Below, piece after piece: positions 7,329 to 32,016 of a stretch of 64,000 bases of DNA (its first letter is position 1; every line of letters begins with the position of its first letter). The notes beneath the pieces are model-generated. The model was not told where the DNA came from. It did not search any database and saw nothing but the letters and a program-made list of their open reading frames with translations. A program made the position numbers and the translations under genes. The stretch lies in the IMG/VR virus record IMGVR_UViG_3300028840_003851; one strand, 5' to 3'. This DNA is from a virus.

Positions 7329-8537
7329 ATGGCTAAAGCAAAGAAGAGAGCGAGTAAGAAGGAAAGTCTAGCGCTTGTGTGCGCTAGGATTAACTCTAAG
7401 TACAAGCACCCCGTAATGTGTATGGCTGACGAGCTGCCAGACACCACGACGTTGCGTAGGCCCAGTGGCATAATGGAGCTAGACATACACACCGGAGGTG
7501 GGTTCCCTGGTGGAGCTGTGACCGTGGTAGCAGGGAAGGACCAGTCTGGAAAGAGCGAGCTCTGTGCCTACTGTGTGGAGATGGTGCAGCGTCTCTACAA
7601 GAAGGACACCAGAGTGGCAATCTTCGCTACGGAGGGAGGATTGGACGTAGACCGCCTACGTGACGTGGGAGTCAAGATACGCTTGTCCCCCGAGGAGGTG
7701 GCGCGCAAGAACTTTGCTAGAGCTGCCGCTGGGGTGCCGCCGCTAACCAAGGAGGAGATAGGAGAAACCGTAGGGGAGATATACGCTGGAAGGGCTCCTT
7801 CAGGAGACGAGACACTAGAGGAGATTCTGAGTCTGATAGGGGAGAACATATGCCAGCTTATAATCGTAGATTCAGTTACAACGCTGTTTCCTATGGCTAA
7901 CCTTGGCAAGTCCCTCACAGACTCGGAGAAGATGGCGGCACACGCCACCATGATAACAAGGTTCTCTAACCGTATTGGAGAGCTCATGAGCGCTGTGCGT
8001 GGTAACAACGCTACTACGGTAATCCTCACGCAACAGATGCGAGCTAACCAGGATAAAGCAAACGCCCCTACATACATGCAGAAGTCCCTTCCGAACGAGA
8101 AACCAGCAGGCGCTCACGCGTTCAAGCATATCGCCACAGTCCGTCTGCTTCTAAGCGAAGGAAGCAGGATAAAGAAGACCATTAAAGGTGACAAGGTCGT
8201 GGTCGGAAAGACGCTAAAGTGGTACGTAGACAAGGGCAAGAAGGGAACATACAACCATAGAACCGGAGACGCCCCATTCTACTACGGAGGGTACGGGTTC
8301 CGTACAGGAGTAGATAGAATAGGAAGCGTCATAGTGTCCGGTATCCGCAGAGGAGTTCTAGCAGAGAAGCCGGACGGGGTGTACCTAAACACCGTAAATG
8401 GCTCCGTGCTAGCTGCAGACAACCTAGTGGAGCTGCGTAGCAAGATAGAGCAAGACCTAGAGCTTGAGCTATCAATACGATACGCCATTCAAGCAAGCAC
8501 CGGAGACTACCGGGTGTACAGGGAGCAAGACGCGTGA
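7329..8537 (+). CDS. recA: RecA/UvsX-like recombinase
   Basis: PSGIMELDIHTGGGFPGG, Walker A GKDQSGKS, Walker B LIIVDSV, VILTQQMR, AFKH, VDKGK. Confidence 0.92.
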   Translation: MAKAKKRASKKESLALVCARINSKYKHPVMCMADELPDTTTLRRPSGIMELDIHTGGGFPGGAVTVVAGKDQSGKSELCAYCVEMVQRLYKKDTRVAIFATEGGLDVDRLRDVGVKIRLSPEEVARKNFARAAAGVPPLTKEEIGETVGEIYAGRAPSGDETLEEILSLIGENICQLIIVDSVTTLFPMANLGKSLTDSEKMAAHATMITRFSNRIGELMSAVRGNNATTVILTQQMRANQDKANAPTYMQKSLPNEKPAGAHAFKHIATVRLLLSEGSRIKKTIKGDKVVVGKTLKWYVDKGKKGTYNHRTGDAPFYYGGYGFRTGVDRIGSVIVSGIRRGVLAEKPDGVYLNTVNGSVLAADNLVELRSKIEQDLELELSIRYAIQASTGDYRVYREQDA

Positions 8538-8884
8538 ATCCTAAAAGCAGAAGACGCGCATCTAAGAAGCAGGAGATAAAGCTAGCAGAAGCCGTAGGAG
8601 GAAGAGTACAGCCCGGCTCAGGGTGCGTACCCGGCTGCAAAGGAGATTTTAGGGTACCAGGTAGACTGCTAGGAGAGGCTAAGTACACAACAAAGAAGAG
8701 CTACTCAATAAAGCTTCATGACCTATTGAAGCTTAAAGCAGAGTGCCAAGGACTAGAGCAGCCAGTGTTAGCCCTGGAGTTTAAGGACGACAGCCTTAGA
8801 ACGTTGGCTAAATACGTCATCATCCCTCAGGTTTACTGGGAGGAGCTGATAGAGGAGAAAGATGGAGAAGCTGACGAAGATTGA
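8534..8884 (+). CDS. PD-(D/E)XK nuclease, Hjc-like Holliday junction resolvase
   Basis: E...A...GGRVQPGSG...KGD...EAKYTTKKSYS. Confidence 0.8.
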   Translation: MNPKSRRRASKKQEIKLAEAVGGRVQPGSGCVPGCKGDFRVPGRLLGEAKYTTKKSYSIKLHDLLKLKAECQGLEQPVLALEFKDDSLRTLAKYVIIPQVYWEELIEEKDGEADED

Positions 8885-9680
8885 GCATCTAGAGTCTATT
8901 AGCGCGGAAACGAGGATGCGGTACTTGAAGAAGGTCGACAGCCTACGGTTCAAGTACATGCGGCTCATAGAGGGGAGAACCGGTGATGTTAGGTATGATG
9001 TGCATATAGGCGGAGGTGAGCACCGAGCAGGAGGCGTGCATGCTTCCGAGGTTGGTGGGTGCCTGCGCGCGCTTACCTACGCAATCAGCTCCACAGAAAG
9101 GATACCTGGCAAGAGCAACTGCAACATGCTCATGCGATTTGCGGTAGGTCACGCGCTCCACTCTATGCTCCAGCATGACTTCCACACAATGTGCAAGGAG
9201 GATGACGAGATAGGGTTTGAGGATGAGGTGAACATAGACCCATCTATCGGAGGACCCGCAGGAACGTGGAACATACACTCCCACTGCGACGGGGTGTTCA
9301 CATTCTTCGAGAAAGGAGAGCCGTACCTGAGAGTGGGTCTAGAGATAAAGACCGCTTCGGACAAGGACTATTCCGTGACTAATGAGCCTAAGACGAAGCA
9401 CAGAGAGCAGACATGCGTGTACATGAGCTGCCTAGACCTGCCCCTAATGTGGGTACTCTACTACAACAAGAGCAACAGCAACTTTACAGGTCCTCACGCA
9501 CCTTGGTTGTACAAGTTCGACGCGCACCTGTGGCGTAAGCTAGAGAAGAGAATGTCATCAGCCACTATTCATTCTATCCGTGAGAGCCTGCCGGCAAGGG
9601 ATGAAGGGTTTGAGTGCAGCTGGTGCCCCTTCTCTTGGACGTGTGACCCGATGAGGTTGAGGAGGGTACATGCTAGATAA
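8862..9680 (+). CDS. Cas4/RecB-like PD-(D/E)XK exonuclease
   Basis: HASEVGGCLR, GHALH, HCDG, LEIKT, QTCVYM, C-terminal ECSWCPFSWTC. Confidence 0.85.
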   Translation: MEKLTKIEHLESISAETRMRYLKKVDSLRFKYMRLIEGRTGDVRYDVHIGGGEHRAGGVHASEVGGCLRALTYAISSTERIPGKSNCNMLMRFAVGHALHSMLQHDFHTMCKEDDEIGFEDEVNIDPSIGGPAGTWNIHSHCDGVFTFFEKGEPYLRVGLEIKTASDKDYSVTNEPKTKHREQTCVYMSCLDLPLMWVLYYNKSNSNFTGPHAPWLYKFDAHLWRKLEKRMSSATIHSIRESLPARDEGFECSWCPFSWTCDPMRLRRVHAR

Positions 9681-10224
9681 GGAGACAGCGGAGAGTATTG
9701 CAGAGTTCTGGGACATCGCTGATGAGATAGAAAGTGAGCTATTTGAGCAAGGGTTCAAACCTTTCCCGATGCCCAGCGTAAACGCTCCCATAGTCACATC
9801 AGACATCCTAACAACCCTAAATGACAGGGAGTACACAGCCAATTTCGCATCCATAACACAGTGGCATGCGTATACCTCAACACAGCTAGCAAGAGTTAAG
9901 GTCAGACTCTACGGGATTCAAAATGCCATGAAGCACATGGAGACCGCCATCCATGAGCTAGAGCGCGCGGCTGCAGCAGACCTAGGGTCCAAGAAGCCTA
10001 CAGCACTAGAGCTGAAGGAAGCCGTGCTGCGAGACCCTGCATACCTGAAGCAGCGGCGAAAAGAGCAGGCAGCCCTGAGCCAGAAGGAGTACCTCGAGAA
10101 CTACGTGAAGATTCTAGAGAAGGCTGGAGGAGTGTTCTCTCGACAAGTGGAGATACGAAGGCAAGAAAGAGAGCAACAGCGAGTAGACGCTAACATGCCT
10201 TTAAGGGGCGGGTACCGTAGATGA
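9670..10224 (+). CDS. Coiled-coil protein, possibly UvsY-like recombination mediator
   Basis: Helical pattern ELKEAVLRDPAYLK...LENYVKILEKAGGVFSRQVEIRR; position inside the recombination cluster. Confidence 0.55.
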   Translation: MLDKETAESIAEFWDIADEIESELFEQGFKPFPMPSVNAPIVTSDILTTLNDREYTANFASITQWHAYTSTQLARVKVRLYGIQNAMKHMETAIHELERAAAADLGSKKPTALELKEAVLRDPAYLKQRRKEQAALSQKEYLENYVKILEKAGGVFSRQVEIRRQEREQQRVDANMPLRGGYRR

Positions 10225-10811
10225 TTCACATCATCCTGCCGTACCTACCCCCTACTACTAACAACGCCTACATCACCAAAAAGAAGAGGTCAGGGGGGAA
10301 AATAGTAACGTTCCGCACGCTGTCAAAGGACGGCGCGCTTTTCAAGAGCTCGGCTACCGTAACCCTCCTATCGGGGGGTCTAGTACACATGAGAGGAAGG
10401 AAGGACAGAGCGTACGGGCTTGCGCTACTGTTTGTGTTCGAGAGCATCTACAATAGCGGATGGCCAGGAAGGACAAAAAACAGGTATAAGCGAACCGACG
10501 TCACCAATAGAGTCAAGCTTCTAGAGGATTGCGTGGCGTCTGCATCAGGAGTAGACGATAGTCAGTACTTCCCTATACTGTTGAGCAAGACAGAGGGAGA
10601 CAAGGAGTGTACGCACGTGTGGATATGGGATACAGAGGAGGAGCCTGATGGGGCCAGAAAAGCTCTACGAGCTGTTGACGCAGTGCAACATTACGGAGCT
10701 CTACCAGAGAGTGAGCCAAGCGGGAATCAGGGCGCACCCCCTGTCCACGAAGGAGGAGCTAGTGGACATGCTCCTGACCGGAAAGGCAGGAGCGGTAAAC
10801 CCCCTCGATGA
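10221..10811 (+). CDS. rusA: RusA-like crossover junction endodeoxyribonuclease
   Basis: LPYLPPTTNNAY; RTDVTNRVKLLEDCVASASGVDDSQ (RusA DxDN..K...D pattern). Confidence 0.8.
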   Translation: MIHIILPYLPPTTNNAYITKKKRSGGKIVTFRTLSKDGALFKSSATVTLLSGGLVHMRGRKDRAYGLALLFVFESIYNSGWPGRTKNRYKRTDVTNRVKLLEDCVASASGVDDSQYFPILLSKTEGDKECTHVWIWDTEEEPDGARKALRAVDAVQHYGALPESEPSGNQGAPPVHEGGASGHAPDRKGRSGKPPR

Positions 10812-11013
10812 GTGGAGAACGAACATCATGCTGTTCGTTCTCCATCACTGGGAGAAGCTAAGACCGCAGCTCGGCGGGTGTGCTGCTAGTACTAGAAGAC
10901 CAGACGCCTGCTTTTACTGCACCGACATGCAGGTAATTGCCTGCCTAGCCATCGAGAACGAGAACAACATAGAGGAGATAAGAAAGCATGGAACCCACAA
11001 AGATGACGGTTGA
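10648..11013 (+). CDS. Hypothetical protein with N-terminal HeH/Rho-N-like motif and Cys cluster
   Basis: GAGGAG RBS; ITELYQRVSQAGIRAHPLSTKEELVDMLL; C...CFYC...C. Confidence 0.7.
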   Translation: MGPEKLYELLTQCNITELYQRVSQAGIRAHPLSTKEELVDMLLTGKAGAVNPLDEWRTNIMLFVLHHWEKLRPQLGGCAASTRRPDACFYCTDMQVIACLAIENENNIEEIRKHGTHKDDG

Positions 11014-11770
11014 GACCATCCCGCGAGACCTTCAGAAGCTCATCGGCGTTCAGCCATACATCAGAGGTCGAATAGCCGGCAAGATTGGAATGTTCGGTAA
11101 GGGGGACGATAAGGAGTCCCAGATGGAGATGTACCTTGCATTCTTGGCTATGAAGGACAAGGAGCAGTCAGAGGAGCTGCTAAGAGCTCTGAATGAGTAC
11201 GACGCGGGGAAGGATGTGACGATGATGGAGTACGTGGAGCAAGAGCCTGCTAAGGTCCCCACTGCTCCCTCAGCCCCTAAGATGGCAGAGGAGAAGAAAG
11301 AAGAGCCCGCAAAAGAGCCACAGAAGAAACCGACGCAAAGCGATGAGCAGAAGCCAGCAAAGACTAGAACTAAGAGAGGCAAGGCAAACGGAAAAAGCGC
11401 TGAGCCAGTGGACCTATCCCCGCCTAAGCTTCCTCCTGGGTTCCCCACAAGCTTGCCGGAGGGGCCCGCAGACAGGCCCAAGAAGAGCTCCCCAACCCCG
11501 GGGGTGTCTCCCTCAATGATATCAGACCTCGTTGAGGAGGTGCGTAGATGCAATGAGCGGGTAGAGGAGCTCTCTGCAAAGACAGAGGAGATTAAATCCG
11601 TAGCGGGCAGCAGCATGGCCCTTCTTATGTGGACGTACTTGTCCCTGTTCAGCAACAACGAGAAGGTAAGCGTAAGCTACCTTGTTGAGTGCATAAAGGG
11701 AGTGATAGGAAGAGGGGAGCTAGAAGCCTTCATTGAGGGCACTAGAAACCACAAGCCCTCGGGAAAATAA
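10988..11770 (+). CDS. Hypothetical protein with long Pro/Lys/Glu linker; ends at a slippery site
   Basis: 260-aa ORF; last codons TCG GGA AAA TAA. Confidence 0.8.
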   Translation: MEPTKMTVETIPRDLQKLIGVQPYIRGRIAGKIGMFGKGDDKESQMEMYLAFLAMKDKEQSEELLRALNEYDAGKDVTMMEYVEQEPAKVPTAPSAPKMAEEKKEEPAKEPQKKPTQSDEQKPAKTRTKRGKANGKSAEPVDLSPPKLPPGFPTSLPEGPADRPKKSSPTPGVSPSMISDLVEEVRRCNERVEELSAKTEEIKSVAGSSMALLMWTYLSLFSNNEKVSVSYLVECIKGVIGRGELEAFIEGTRNHKPSGK

Positions 11771-11804
11771 TTGCGCCCCCCTGGCCTGGGTGCACGGCTC
11801 CAGG
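11761..11804 (+). promoter_or_regulatory. Putative programmed -1 ribosomal frameshift signal
   Basis: In-frame G GGA AAA heptamer (11761-67), short spacer, stem TGCGCCC/GGGTGCA, possible second stem CCTGG/CCAGG. Confidence 0.65.
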
Positions 11805-11964
11805 AGACGACGACCTTATTACTGCTACCAAGGACGTAGACTCCATGAACAGCGAGGAGCTGAGCGCCCTGGCCAGAGAGCTGGGGCTCATCACCAACGA
11901 CAAGCCTCCCATAGAGGTGGTAAGAAGGAGACTGAGAGAGGCGGTAATAGAATGGGAGAGGTAG
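11767..11964 (+). CDS. -1-frame extension (65 aa) ending in a HeH/Rho-N-like helix pair
   Basis: IIAPPWPGCTAPGDDDLITATKDVDSMNSEELSALARELGLITNDKPPIEVVRRRLREAVIEWER; stop overlaps the start of the 11952 gene. Confidence 0.6.
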   Translation: MIAPPWPGCTAPGDDDLITATKDVDSMNSEELSALARELGLITNDKPPIEVVRRRLREAVIEWER

Positions 11965-12266
11965 CACAATCCAGCAGCTCTGAGCTCAAAGAGGCTGCAC
12001 AGACGGAGACATGGAGGTACGGTAGATACCCTATACCGCCTGCAGAGCAGCTGTGTCCTGGGGAGCCTGAGTGGGAGCCTGGCACATCATGGTGGATGTG
12101 CCCAAGATGCGGGCATGTTGGCCGCGCTCCGTACTTCGGGCATTACGCCGCTAGAGAGCCCGTCCCGCGTAGGACGGAGAAGAAGGGATGGGGAAGAGTC
12201 GCGATGGCCGTGGCGCCATTGATAGCGGCGTTAGCAAGCCTGCTTACACTAGCGCGTAGAGGATAG
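11952..12266 (+). CDS. Zinc-ribbon protein with C-terminal hydrophobic anchor
   Basis: GAGG upstream of ATG 11952; WMCPRCGH; VAMAVAPLIAALASLLTLA. Confidence 0.7.
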   Translation: MGEVAQSSSSELKEAAQTETWRYGRYPIPPAEQLCPGEPEWEPGTSWWMCPRCGHVGRAPYFGHYAAREPVPRRTEKKGWGRVAMAVAPLIAALASLLTLARRG

Positions 12267-12270
12267 CTTT

Positions 12271-12301
12271 AAGGCGGGCTCACCCCCGCCTTTCTTTAGC
12301 T
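12271..12301 (+). terminator. Intrinsic terminator at convergent junction
   Basis: AAGGCGGG-CTCACC-CCCGCC-TTTCTTTAGCT. Confidence 0.8.
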
Positions 12302-12480
12302 ACAGAAACCACACGGGGGCTGGACCTGTTCGCATCTGACTGCTGGATGGTAGGTGATGGAAGGTCCTCCGGAGGCTCTACGAGCTCCTCCTCTGCCTCT
12401 AGAGGTCCTAAGCCGCGGCTAACCGTGAGACGCCCTAGGCCGAGCCTAAACCCCCTGGACTGGAACCCTAGAGAGCTCAT
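12280..12480 (-). CDS. Small virion-associated hypothetical protein
   Basis: ATGA-type overlap with the upstream gene; SRGFRLGLGRLTVSRGLG. Confidence 0.55.
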   Translation of the reverse strand: MSSLGFQSRGFRLGLGRLTVSRGLGPLEAEEELVEPPEDLPSPTIQQSDANRSSPRVVSVAKERRG

Positions 12481-13016
12481 ATGCTGCTAGCCGTCCTCTT
12501 AGCAGGCACACCGGTGGCGGACACGATGGCGCCATCGTTGTTGTCCCTCAGCTCCTGGTCAAGGATAGGCGTTACGTTGTCATCATCATAGGTGATGAGG
12601 CGTCCCGGAAGACCAGGCTCCTCCTCCTGACGGTTGGTGATTACCTTCCTCACCAACGACGTGTCTGCTGCGATGTCGACAATCTTAAGGATGTCGTGGT
12701 CTCCCCCCACAACACCACCACCGTCGTCTACTGAGAACTCAGCCACCAGCTCCTGTCCAGCTTGAAGGTTTAGATTGGCAACATTGATGCTTCTCTGGTA
12801 ATGCCCGCGCTCTACCTCCACCATAGGAGAGTACTTGATTGTCCACCCAGATGTCTTGAAGGTGTTGTCCGCGAAGTCCAGGTAGGAGTTAACCGTGTCA
12901 CCGTCCCTTACAGCTACTGTAGGAGACTGTCCTGTAACACCGCCACCAGGTCCTATAATGGAGCACACCAAAGGGTAGGAGGATGACGTTCTCTCTATCT
13001 CGTGCGTACTACCCAT
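12477..13016 (-). CDS. Virion structural hypothetical protein
   Basis: Abuts neighbours; beta-rich composition; in the fibre operon. Confidence 0.75.
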   Translation of the reverse strand: MGSTHEIERTSSSYPLVCSIIGPGGGVTGQSPTVAVRDGDTVNSYLDFADNTFKTSGWTIKYSPMVEVERGHYQRSINVANLNLQAGQELVAEFSVDDGGGVVGGDHDILKIVDIAADTSLVRKVITNRQEEEPGLPGRLITYDDDNVTPILDQELRDNNDGAIVSATGVPAKRTASSI

Positions 13017-31692: not shown

Positions 31693-31701
31693 CAATCGAT
31701 G

Positions 31702-31775
31702 TGCCCAGCGATAGGGTCGAACTCGCAGCATACCGCTTTTGAGGCGGCCTCCTCTGCCTTTTGGGCTAGCTTGGC
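31702..31775 (-). tRNA. tRNA-Leu(CAA)-like, degenerate T-stem, short variable loop
   Basis: Anticodon arm GCCGC-CTCAAAA-GCGGT; T-stem GCGAG/CTATC has two mismatches; no full CCA. Confidence 0.65.
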
Positions 31776-31851
31776 TGGTACCGGGAACAAGAGTCGAACT
31801 TGCACTGAGCTGGTTCTAAGCCAGCTGCCTCTGCCGTTGGGCTACCCCGGC
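31776..31851 (-). tRNA. tRNA-Leu(TAG), CCA encoded, short variable loop
   Basis: GCCGGGG acceptor, GCTGG-CTTAGAA-CCAGC, GCAAG-TTCGACT-CTTGT, ACCA end. Confidence 0.92.
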
Positions 31852-31858
31852 AAAACCT

Positions 31859-31938
31859 TGGGATGCTCCGGGCATCGAACCCGGACGATAGACATCATGA
31901 ATTCTGTTGTGCGTCGTCTACCGGCCCTAGCACATCCC
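31859..31938 (-). pseudogene. Degenerate tRNA (possible CAT anticodon)
   Basis: Intact acceptor GGGATGT/GCATCCC and T-arm CCGGG-TTCGATG-CCCGG; D and anticodon stems do not pair; 80 nt. Confidence 0.6.
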
Positions 31939-31945
31939 TAAGGCA

Positions 31946-32016
31946 GCTGAGTATGAGGGAATCGAACCCCCTTCTTCAGGTTTGGAGCCTGAGTGCCCAC
32001 CATGGGCTATGCCCAG
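31946..32016 (-). tRNA. tRNA-Trp(CCA), atypical
   Basis: TCAGG-CTCCAAA-CCTGA; D-arm GCCC-ATGGT-GGGC; extra A between T-stem and acceptor. Confidence 0.75.

Follow-up and report, generated by a model that had tools for sequence, protein, structure and literature searches.

What becomes of a gene when the codons before its stop can make ribosomes slip, and the frame into which they would slip stays open? The question is raised by a locus in the 64,000-nucleotide (nt) stretch of viral DNA analysed here, called the window throughout (IMG/VR virus record IMGVR_UViG_3300028840_003851). An open reading frame (ORF) of 260 amino acids (aa), found at 10988..11770 in the ORF list, ends in AAG CCC TCG GGA AAA TAA. 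The heptamer G GGA AAA (11761..11767) is in X XXY YYZ register, its leading X falling on a third codon position, and adjoins the zero-frame stop TAA (11768..11770), which ends the shorter of two possible products. The -1 frame from 11767 consists of 65 sense codons, translated as IIAPPWPGCTAPGDDD...EVVRRRLREAVIEWER (complete translation, IIAPPWPGCTAPGDDDLITATKDVDSMNSEELSALARELGLITNDKPPIEVVRRRLREAVIEWER), followed by a TAG at 11962-64; the extension, delimited by translation and family alignment, spans 11767..11964. This TAG overlaps the next gene, which starts at ATG 11952, and lies 10 nt past that start. All these features are on the plus strand. An earlier note, written from the letters of this DNA, had described the heptamer in frame before the stop and a 65-codon open -1 frame overlapping the next start, and re-reading confirmed all of these sequence statements. 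Its core reading, a -1 site giving two isoforms of a protein that is not a tail protein, is supported by the conservation of the heptamer and by a -1 frame that is coding and, in most loci, startless. Programmed -1 ribosomal frameshifting on G GGA AAA, yielding isoforms of 260 and 325 aa, is very probably the correct explanation of the locus.

In the proposed mechanism most ribosomes would read GGA AAA and terminate at TAA 11768, releasing the 260-aa protein. A fraction would move back by one nucleotide at G GGA AAA, tRNA-Gly in the P site passing from GGA to GGG and tRNA-Lys in the A site from AAA to AAA, and would translate 65 codons in the -1 frame, so that the full-length trans-frame product would measure 260 + 65 = 325 aa. 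The ratio of the isoforms would be set by the efficiency of the slip; we infer both the slip and its efficiency. The added tail would start with a conserved W-P-G segment (TGG CCT GGG, 11782..11790, its Trp invariant in the family) and end with a predicted helix-extended-helix module of the SAP/HeH/Rho-N type (11851..11943), delimited by an AlphaFold2 (AF2) model and by structural matches.

Relatives of the locus

The 260-aa protein is a poor query. A word-indexed search of 5.8 billion proteins matched only the protein itself, a direct search of the IMG/VR viral contigs gave no match, and the ESM Atlas no usable hit; no Pfam or PHROG family was found for either the 260-aa protein or the extension. 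Because these direct searches failed, relatives were reached by synteny. The Cas4-like neighbour, syntenic and better conserved, led to phage contigs (~105-195 kb) and metagenome contigs, at 33-55% identity. A hidden Markov model (HMM) of the extension, blind to the heptamer, was run on metagenome loci, and a second HMM, limited to the N-terminal domain and blind to heptamer and extension alike, identified 47 complete ORFs. The gene order is the same in every syntenic locus, a Cys-rich gene being followed by the homologue of the 260-aa protein (~220-390 aa) and by a Zn-ribbon gene. Zero-frame homologues are 16-26% identical to the window protein, and their alignment has four invariant columns, one of which is the Gly of the heptamer.

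Conservation of the heptamer

A pattern scan found the heptamer in 23/23 syntenic loci containing the region, apparent misses being either G GGA AAC sites or contigs ending too early. An in-frame GGGAAA[AC] is present in all 26 metagenome loci matched by the extension HMM, and an in-frame GGGAAAN in the last codons of 46 of the 47 complete ORFs obtained with the N-terminal-domain HMM. The exception, locus L088, ends in GAC CCA AAA GAC AGG TAG and carries an in-frame C CCA AAA (L088 2913-2919); its -1 frame still reads ..RWPDER, and the contig stops 52 nt past the heptamer. All three X bases have changed together in this lineage, turning the zero-frame Gly into Pro and keeping the slippery pattern. 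Every complete homologue (47/47) has in-frame GGGAAAA, GGGAAAC or CCCAAAA, 0-5 codons before the stop. Conservation in homologues was a check that the earlier note had set beforehand: the heptamer and an open -1 frame are kept in all, far beyond what chance would give, one lineage showing the compensated GGG to CCC change.

In 37 distinct loci GGGAAAA is found 32 times and GGGAAAC 5 times. The distance from heptamer to stop is 0 codons in 13 loci, 1 in 17, 2 in 5, and 3 and 5 in one locus each. GGGAAA is invariant in a DNA alignment of 21 sites. The codon preceding the heptamer comes in ten forms (CCG, CAG, GAG, TCG, ACG, GGG, GCG, AAG, CTG, GTG), every one ending in G. Codon usage in these phages gives GGA for 17% of Gly, AAA for 18% of Lys, and G-ending codons at 31%. 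Amino-acid conservation cannot explain the nucleotides, since GGA and AAA are minority codons and the preceding codon is varied yet always G-ending. An in-frame X XXY YYZ (Y = A or T) occurs in these phages about once per 1,200 codons. Comparison of the loci shows the heptamer to be under constraint at the nucleotide level.

A metagenomic protein related to the extension, P0010, reads ..RRKCVGAVLDDPWP.. / ..ARRKCVGAVLDDPWP.. across the expected shift site. From its letters the underlying site may be N GGA AAT (N being A or C), which would make an imperfect heptamer.

Coding in the -1 frame

The 21 extensions taken from viral contigs align as a protein family. Their layout is made up of 5-9 variable residues, the W-P-G segment, an acidic segment, and L..L....L..LA..LG[VL]...(8-10 residues)...[LV][IL]R.R[LI]. 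The Trp never varies, the Pro and the LG-motif Gly hardly do, and the Pro and Gly codons of the W-P-G segment differ between loci at the third position. Substitutions between close pairs, counted on -1-frame codon positions 1/2/3, number 200/151/381, and because of this third-position excess the -1 frame is shown, at the level of sequence comparison, to be protein-coding and under purifying selection.

No start codon accompanies this coding frame in most loci. ATG, GTG and TTG are missing from the last upstream -1-frame stop to the invariant Trp in 31 of the 37 distinct loci, the window included; of the six others, two have an ATG right at the stop (AAAATGA, AAATAATGA) and four only a distant GTG. 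Automatic gene callers annotate two ORFs at the locus, the 260-aa one and another of 39 aa starting at ATG 11845 (11845..11964, plus strand), and the dearth of starts before the Trp argues that the latter is a truncated call of the extension. The conserved Trp lies 21 codons upstream of ATG 11845, and the part of the extension preceding Met 11845 includes, for example, the peptide IIAPPWPGCTAPGDDDLITATK. Most relatives have Leu or another residue where the window has Met 11845, which on this account is not a conserved start. A promoter and terminator scan of 10800-12500 found nothing above shuffled expectation between the two frames.

In an exhaustive search of 1.84 billion cluster representatives the extension profile retrieved 51 relatives, almost all of them ORF calls of 37-81 aa. 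Natural in-frame fusions, which the earlier note had suggested looking for in homologues, did not turn up: no protein of 230-460 aa with a C-terminal match is present among the 51 relatives. As no fused form was found, the split two-frame arrangement is the rule of the family, not an assembly error or a recent indel.

RNA structure and the zero-frame stop

A 7-base-pair (bp) hairpin is found 4 nt after the heptamer (11772..11794, plus strand). Its stem, 11772-78/11788-94, is the minimum-free-energy hairpin found by ViennaRNA in an 83-nt stretch, with z = -0.85 relative to shuffled sequences, and CCUGG at 11780-84 can pair with CCAGG at 11800-04. For the 50 nt downstream of the heptamer, z is -0.57 when random 50-nt windows taken from the same sequence serve as the reference. 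Over the family the downstream fold has a mean z of -0.8; strong hairpins are found in loci L011, L012, L014 and L017, with pairings mutually different. RNAalifold found no consensus pair in the alignment of 21 sites, and the proposed stem and pseudoknot form pairs in 52% of the alignment cells, the figure for shuffles being 47% and that after sliding by one column 55%. The only nucleotides conserved beyond GGGAAA are the TGGC of the Trp-Pro codons, and no upstream Shine-Dalgarno (SD) sequence is conserved across the family sites. The stem and pseudoknot described in the earlier note stand in part, as the 7-bp stem and the loop pairing exist but are neither above chance nor conserved as a stimulator.

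TAG serves as zero-frame stop at 25 of the 37 loci, vs. 121 of 445 long open frames of these loci (27%; TGA, 274), a comparison uncorrected for kinship. The excess of TAG may reflect coding constraint in the -1 frame or a 'shifty stop' effect, a term from Weiss et al. 1987 as cited in PMC5009743. Slow termination might, alternatively, belong to the signal and substitute for RNA structure; the nearby zero-frame stop may contribute to the shift.

Alternative explanations

The choice made by the gene callers corresponds to an alternative in which the tail is an independent small protein, produced in the window from ATG 11845 (39 aa), and the heptamer is incidental. An SD-like AAGGA at 11830-34, 10 nt upstream of this ATG, and the many database relatives of the extension called as 37-81-aa ORFs are in line with it. 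The earlier note had itself raised this start as the case that would overturn frameshifting. It fails on the conserved coding sequence, invariant Trp included, that lies upstream of ATG 11845, on the replacement of this Met by Leu or other residues in most relatives, and on the 31/37 loci lacking a canonical start before the Trp; it also leaves unexplained the invariance of a heptamer made of rare codons and the compensated change to C CCA AAA. We regard an independent protein as highly improbable. Translation of the tail might be coupled to termination, ribosomes restarting near TAA 11768 on a non-canonical codon (ATA or ATT in the window; ATG in L016 and L017) and making a tail protein of ~65 aa in fixed proportion. 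In all loci the conserved -1 coding sequence begins within 0-5 codons of the stop, and two loci exhibit ATGA or TAATG overlaps, typical of coupling. Most loci, however, have no ATG, GTG, TTG or SD sequence at the junction, and reinitiation predicts neither a conserved X XXY YYZ in the zero frame nor a switch from GGG to CCC that preserves the pattern; it is very unlikely to account for the family. An assembly indel, transcriptional slippage on the A run, or a fortuitous heptamer next to an open frame would be allowed by a single window, given the rate of X XXY YYZ mentioned above. Artefact or chance has a negligible probability, since 37 distinct assemblies, drawn from many samples, agree in their frame arrangement and no fused in-frame form was found. 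An assembly error was rejected on the agreement of the 37 assemblies. Known sites of transcriptional slippage feature 8 or more As, whereas the A run is here 4 nt long, and 3 nt in GGGAAAC loci, too short for slippage, which was likewise rejected.

A few points weigh against programmed frameshifting. X XXA AAA heptamers are less shifty than X XXA AAG in E. coli. A conserved stimulatory hairpin or pseudoknot was not found by sequence comparison, the stem of the window being only 4 nt away from the heptamer and not above chance. The -1-frame ATG at the stop in L016 and L017 means that there the tail could also arise by coupled reinitiation. The loci sampled are mutually related, and the counts given above do not correspond to independent events. 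The sequencing runs containing the locus are two DNA metagenome runs (sediment, seawater), which may be those of the source samples, with no RNA run listed.

Predicted structures

According to the AF2 model of the 260-aa protein, built on a 21-row alignment, a four-helix N-terminal domain (aa 10-75; predicted local distance difference test score, pLDDT, > 90) is followed by a disordered linker (aa 80-170), rich in Pro, Lys and Glu and replaced in relatives by a long Pro/Gln/Ala-rich tract, and by a C-terminal domain (aa 175-253) in which a helix of 50 residues is accompanied by two short ones. The N-terminal domain is superimposable on the N-terminal helical subdomain of Rho (1a62; VIA-align Z 5.5, root-mean-square deviation, rmsd, 1.7 Å over 47 residues), and the long helix of the C-terminal domain matches coiled coils generically. 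A profile of the N-terminal domain found nothing meaningful among PDB sequences. Foldseek searches of PDB and BFVD gave no significant match for the 260-aa model or the extension model, E-values for the extension being all > 1.

The extension is modelled with a pLDDT of 82.7 as two helices (residues 29-39 and 49-59) separated by a 9-residue extended linker. When 48,161 chains were compared with it by VIA-align, the SAP domain of Hcc-1 (2do1; Z 4.0, rmsd 2.6 Å, 42 residues) came out on top, and SAP, LEM or Rho-N domains are 13 of the best 50 structural matches. Z values are low, which is usual for a length of 40 residues. SAP-like domains that bind proteins are also found among the best 50 matches, such as those of MANF with BiP (6h9u) and SLX4 with MUS81 (7bu5). 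At the sequence level, a Pfam scan of the 21 extensions matched HeH (PF12949) in 1/21 at E = 0.044, below the family threshold, and listed none of PF02037 (SAP), PF03020 (LEM) and PF07498 (Rho_N). The extension profile retrieved only designed repeat proteins from PDB sequences, with no SAP, HeH or Rho chain; it weakly reaches proteins with tandem HeH repeats (E ~1e-4). A weak hhalign match (probability 55%) relates the first helix of the tail to a helix of the N-terminal domain, both featuring L..LA..LG.

The tail as modelled would share with SAP, LEM, HeH and Rho-N domains (2do1, 1h1j, 1a62, 2odc) two helices of ~11 residues, an extended linker of ~9 residues, and the L..LA..LG pattern; it differs in that Z values reach only 3-4 and no Pfam model matches at threshold. 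The Rho-N/SAP/HeH resemblance proposed in the earlier note holds only at the level of the predicted fold (2do1, 13/50), and membership of HeH is not supported at the level of sequence. The predicted tail may be described as SAP/HeH-like in fold, and family membership is not claimed.

Gene neighbourhood

The source of the window is an uncultured phage, represented by contigs of up to 178.6 kb. No cultured relative was found in INPHARED, the sole hits, to Thermus and Eggerthella phages, being at 22-24% identity. The genes preceding the 260-aa ORF are all on the plus strand and encode a UvsX/RecA-like recombinase (7329-8537), a resolvase-like protein matching phrog_2002 'Holliday junction resolvase' at E = 4e-19 (8534-8884), a Cas4-like PD-(D/E)XK nuclease (8862-9680), a coiled-coil protein (9670-10224), a RusA-like protein recognized by a weak match (10221-10811), and a Cys-rich protein (10648-11013). 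Downstream of the locus the strand flips, and genes resembling those of tail fibres are found. The recombination cluster that the earlier note had placed around the locus is there, with the UvsX/RecA-like, Cas4-like and RusA-like genes and a second resolvase-like gene. Two different resolvase-like genes (8534-8884 and 10221-10811) share one module with the UvsX-like and Cas4-like genes.

The Cys-rich ORF at 10648-11013 opens with an HeH-like motif of its own (..CNITELYQRVSQAGIRAHPLSTKEELVDMLL..), which is kept in loci L004, L005, L006 and L007 (CNRTELYQLC..). Inclusion of the motif needs a start at ATG 10648, and a 164-nt overlap with the 3' end of the RusA-like ORF; the gene caller began the gene at 10762 (83 aa), losing the motif.

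The gene downstream of the extension (11952..12266, plus strand) encodes a Zn-ribbon protein of the CxxC...CxxC type, 104 aa long, which is kept in relatives. The window protein (..WWMCPRCGH..) has a counterpart in all relatives examined (..EPWR..W.C.KCGY..). Ribosomes that had shifted frame would terminate 10 nt inside this gene, and coupling of its translation to that of the long isoform is possible. An ORF in the +1 frame, 11733-12266, was considered, and dismissed upstream of ATG 11952, where its translation is Arg-rich and looks non-coding.

Three tRNA genes, Leu-CAA, Leu-TAG and Trp-CCA, are found on the minus strand of the window at 31701-32015. None decodes a slippery codon, and genes for tRNA-Gly, tRNA-Lys and tRNA-Asn are missing from the window.

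A possible role for the two isoforms

Neighbourhood and architecture suggest that the 260-aa protein is probably a scaffold or mediator, oligomeric by way of its long helix, in a recombination or replication module. The tail may tether a fixed fraction of the subunits to nucleic acid or to a partner within this module. A wider reading, which we offer as doubtful, is that a helix-extended-helix tether added by -1 frameshifting to part of an oligomer is a recurrent modular device of tailed phages, not confined to capsids; the long isoform, Rho-N/HeH-like at both ends, would be a bivalent DNA/RNA bridge to the recombination or replication machinery. If so, the efficiency of the shift would set the number of bridging subunits per assembly.

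The locus adds a probable recoding site that is deeply conserved; its gene, uncharacterised and apparently not one for a virion protein, belongs to a clade of uncultured phages (~105-195 kb) from sediments, soils and waters, and phage recoding would gain a gene class. Annotation is corrected, since current calls separate a spurious 39-aa ORF from the gene to which it belongs. Conserved production of two isoforms would mark the protein as functionally important, and the family would provide a natural test case of frameshifting without a conserved RNA stimulator.

Comparison with known frameshift systems

The mechanism is a textbook one; the gene family and the phage group are new for it. No paper was found in a search of the literature on frameshifting in the family of the 260-aa gene. 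Tail chaperone genes make up 2,397 of the 2,476 frameshifts annotated by SEA-PHAGES (PMC10885494). Slippery sites of this type are well documented. In E. coli G_GGA_AAG shifts very readily, and the haloarchaeal virus HCTV-1 uses G_GGA_AAC for g-t expression (PMC5009743). In Microbacterium phage Bush the tail chaperone is annotated with GGGAAAA as its -1 site (PMC11749239), and for mycobacteriophage TM4 this heptamer has been reported to be a site of translational frameshifting (PMC4626039).

The remaining phage cases that have been studied well concern capsid proteins, which are extended by -1 frameshifting in Listeria phages A118/A500 (cps), Lactobacillus phage A2, T3, and T7 (gene 10A/10B; PMC5009743). 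As in these phages, the shift would take place at the very end of the gene and place a small folded domain on a fraction of the subunits. The protein described here, in contrast, has no match to a capsid fold and is encoded outside the structural block, and published capsid extensions are mostly Ig-like.

In E. coli, tau and gamma are both made from dnaX by a -1 slip on a heptamer of Lys codons, aided by a strong upstream SD sequence and a downstream hairpin. The likeness to dnaX lies in a non-structural protein of DNA metabolism, the role suggested above for the phage protein, that exists in two isoforms distinguished by a C-terminal interaction module. Yet the shift truncates the product in dnaX and would extend it here, and conserved stimulators of the dnaX kind were not found at the phage sites. 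The tau/gamma frameshift is reviewed in PMC5009743.

A comparable arrangement of the frames is found in tail assembly chaperones of the lambda G/GT type (Levin 1993; Xu, Hendrix and Duda 2004, as reviewed in PMC5009743). Both systems feature a -1 slip, here predicted, on G GGA AAx close to the upstream frame's 3' end, giving a short product and a C-terminally extended one, and in both the arrangement is kept across very divergent phages, protein sequences not. The differences concern context and product. The chaperone pair is located between the tail tube and tape-measure genes, whereas the gene described here is found in a module of UvsX-like, Cas4-like and resolvase-like genes; a Rho-N-like domain, a linker, a long helix and a SAP-like tail have no likeness to gpG or gpT. 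When looked for, no chaperone family or fold match was found for the 260-aa protein, its neighbours being UvsX-like, Cas4-like, RusA-like and Zn-ribbon genes. In lambda, gpG and gpGT are needed for assembly at a ratio of 30:1 (PMC5009743), and by analogy a fixed ratio of the 260- and 325-aa isoforms may matter in these phages as well.

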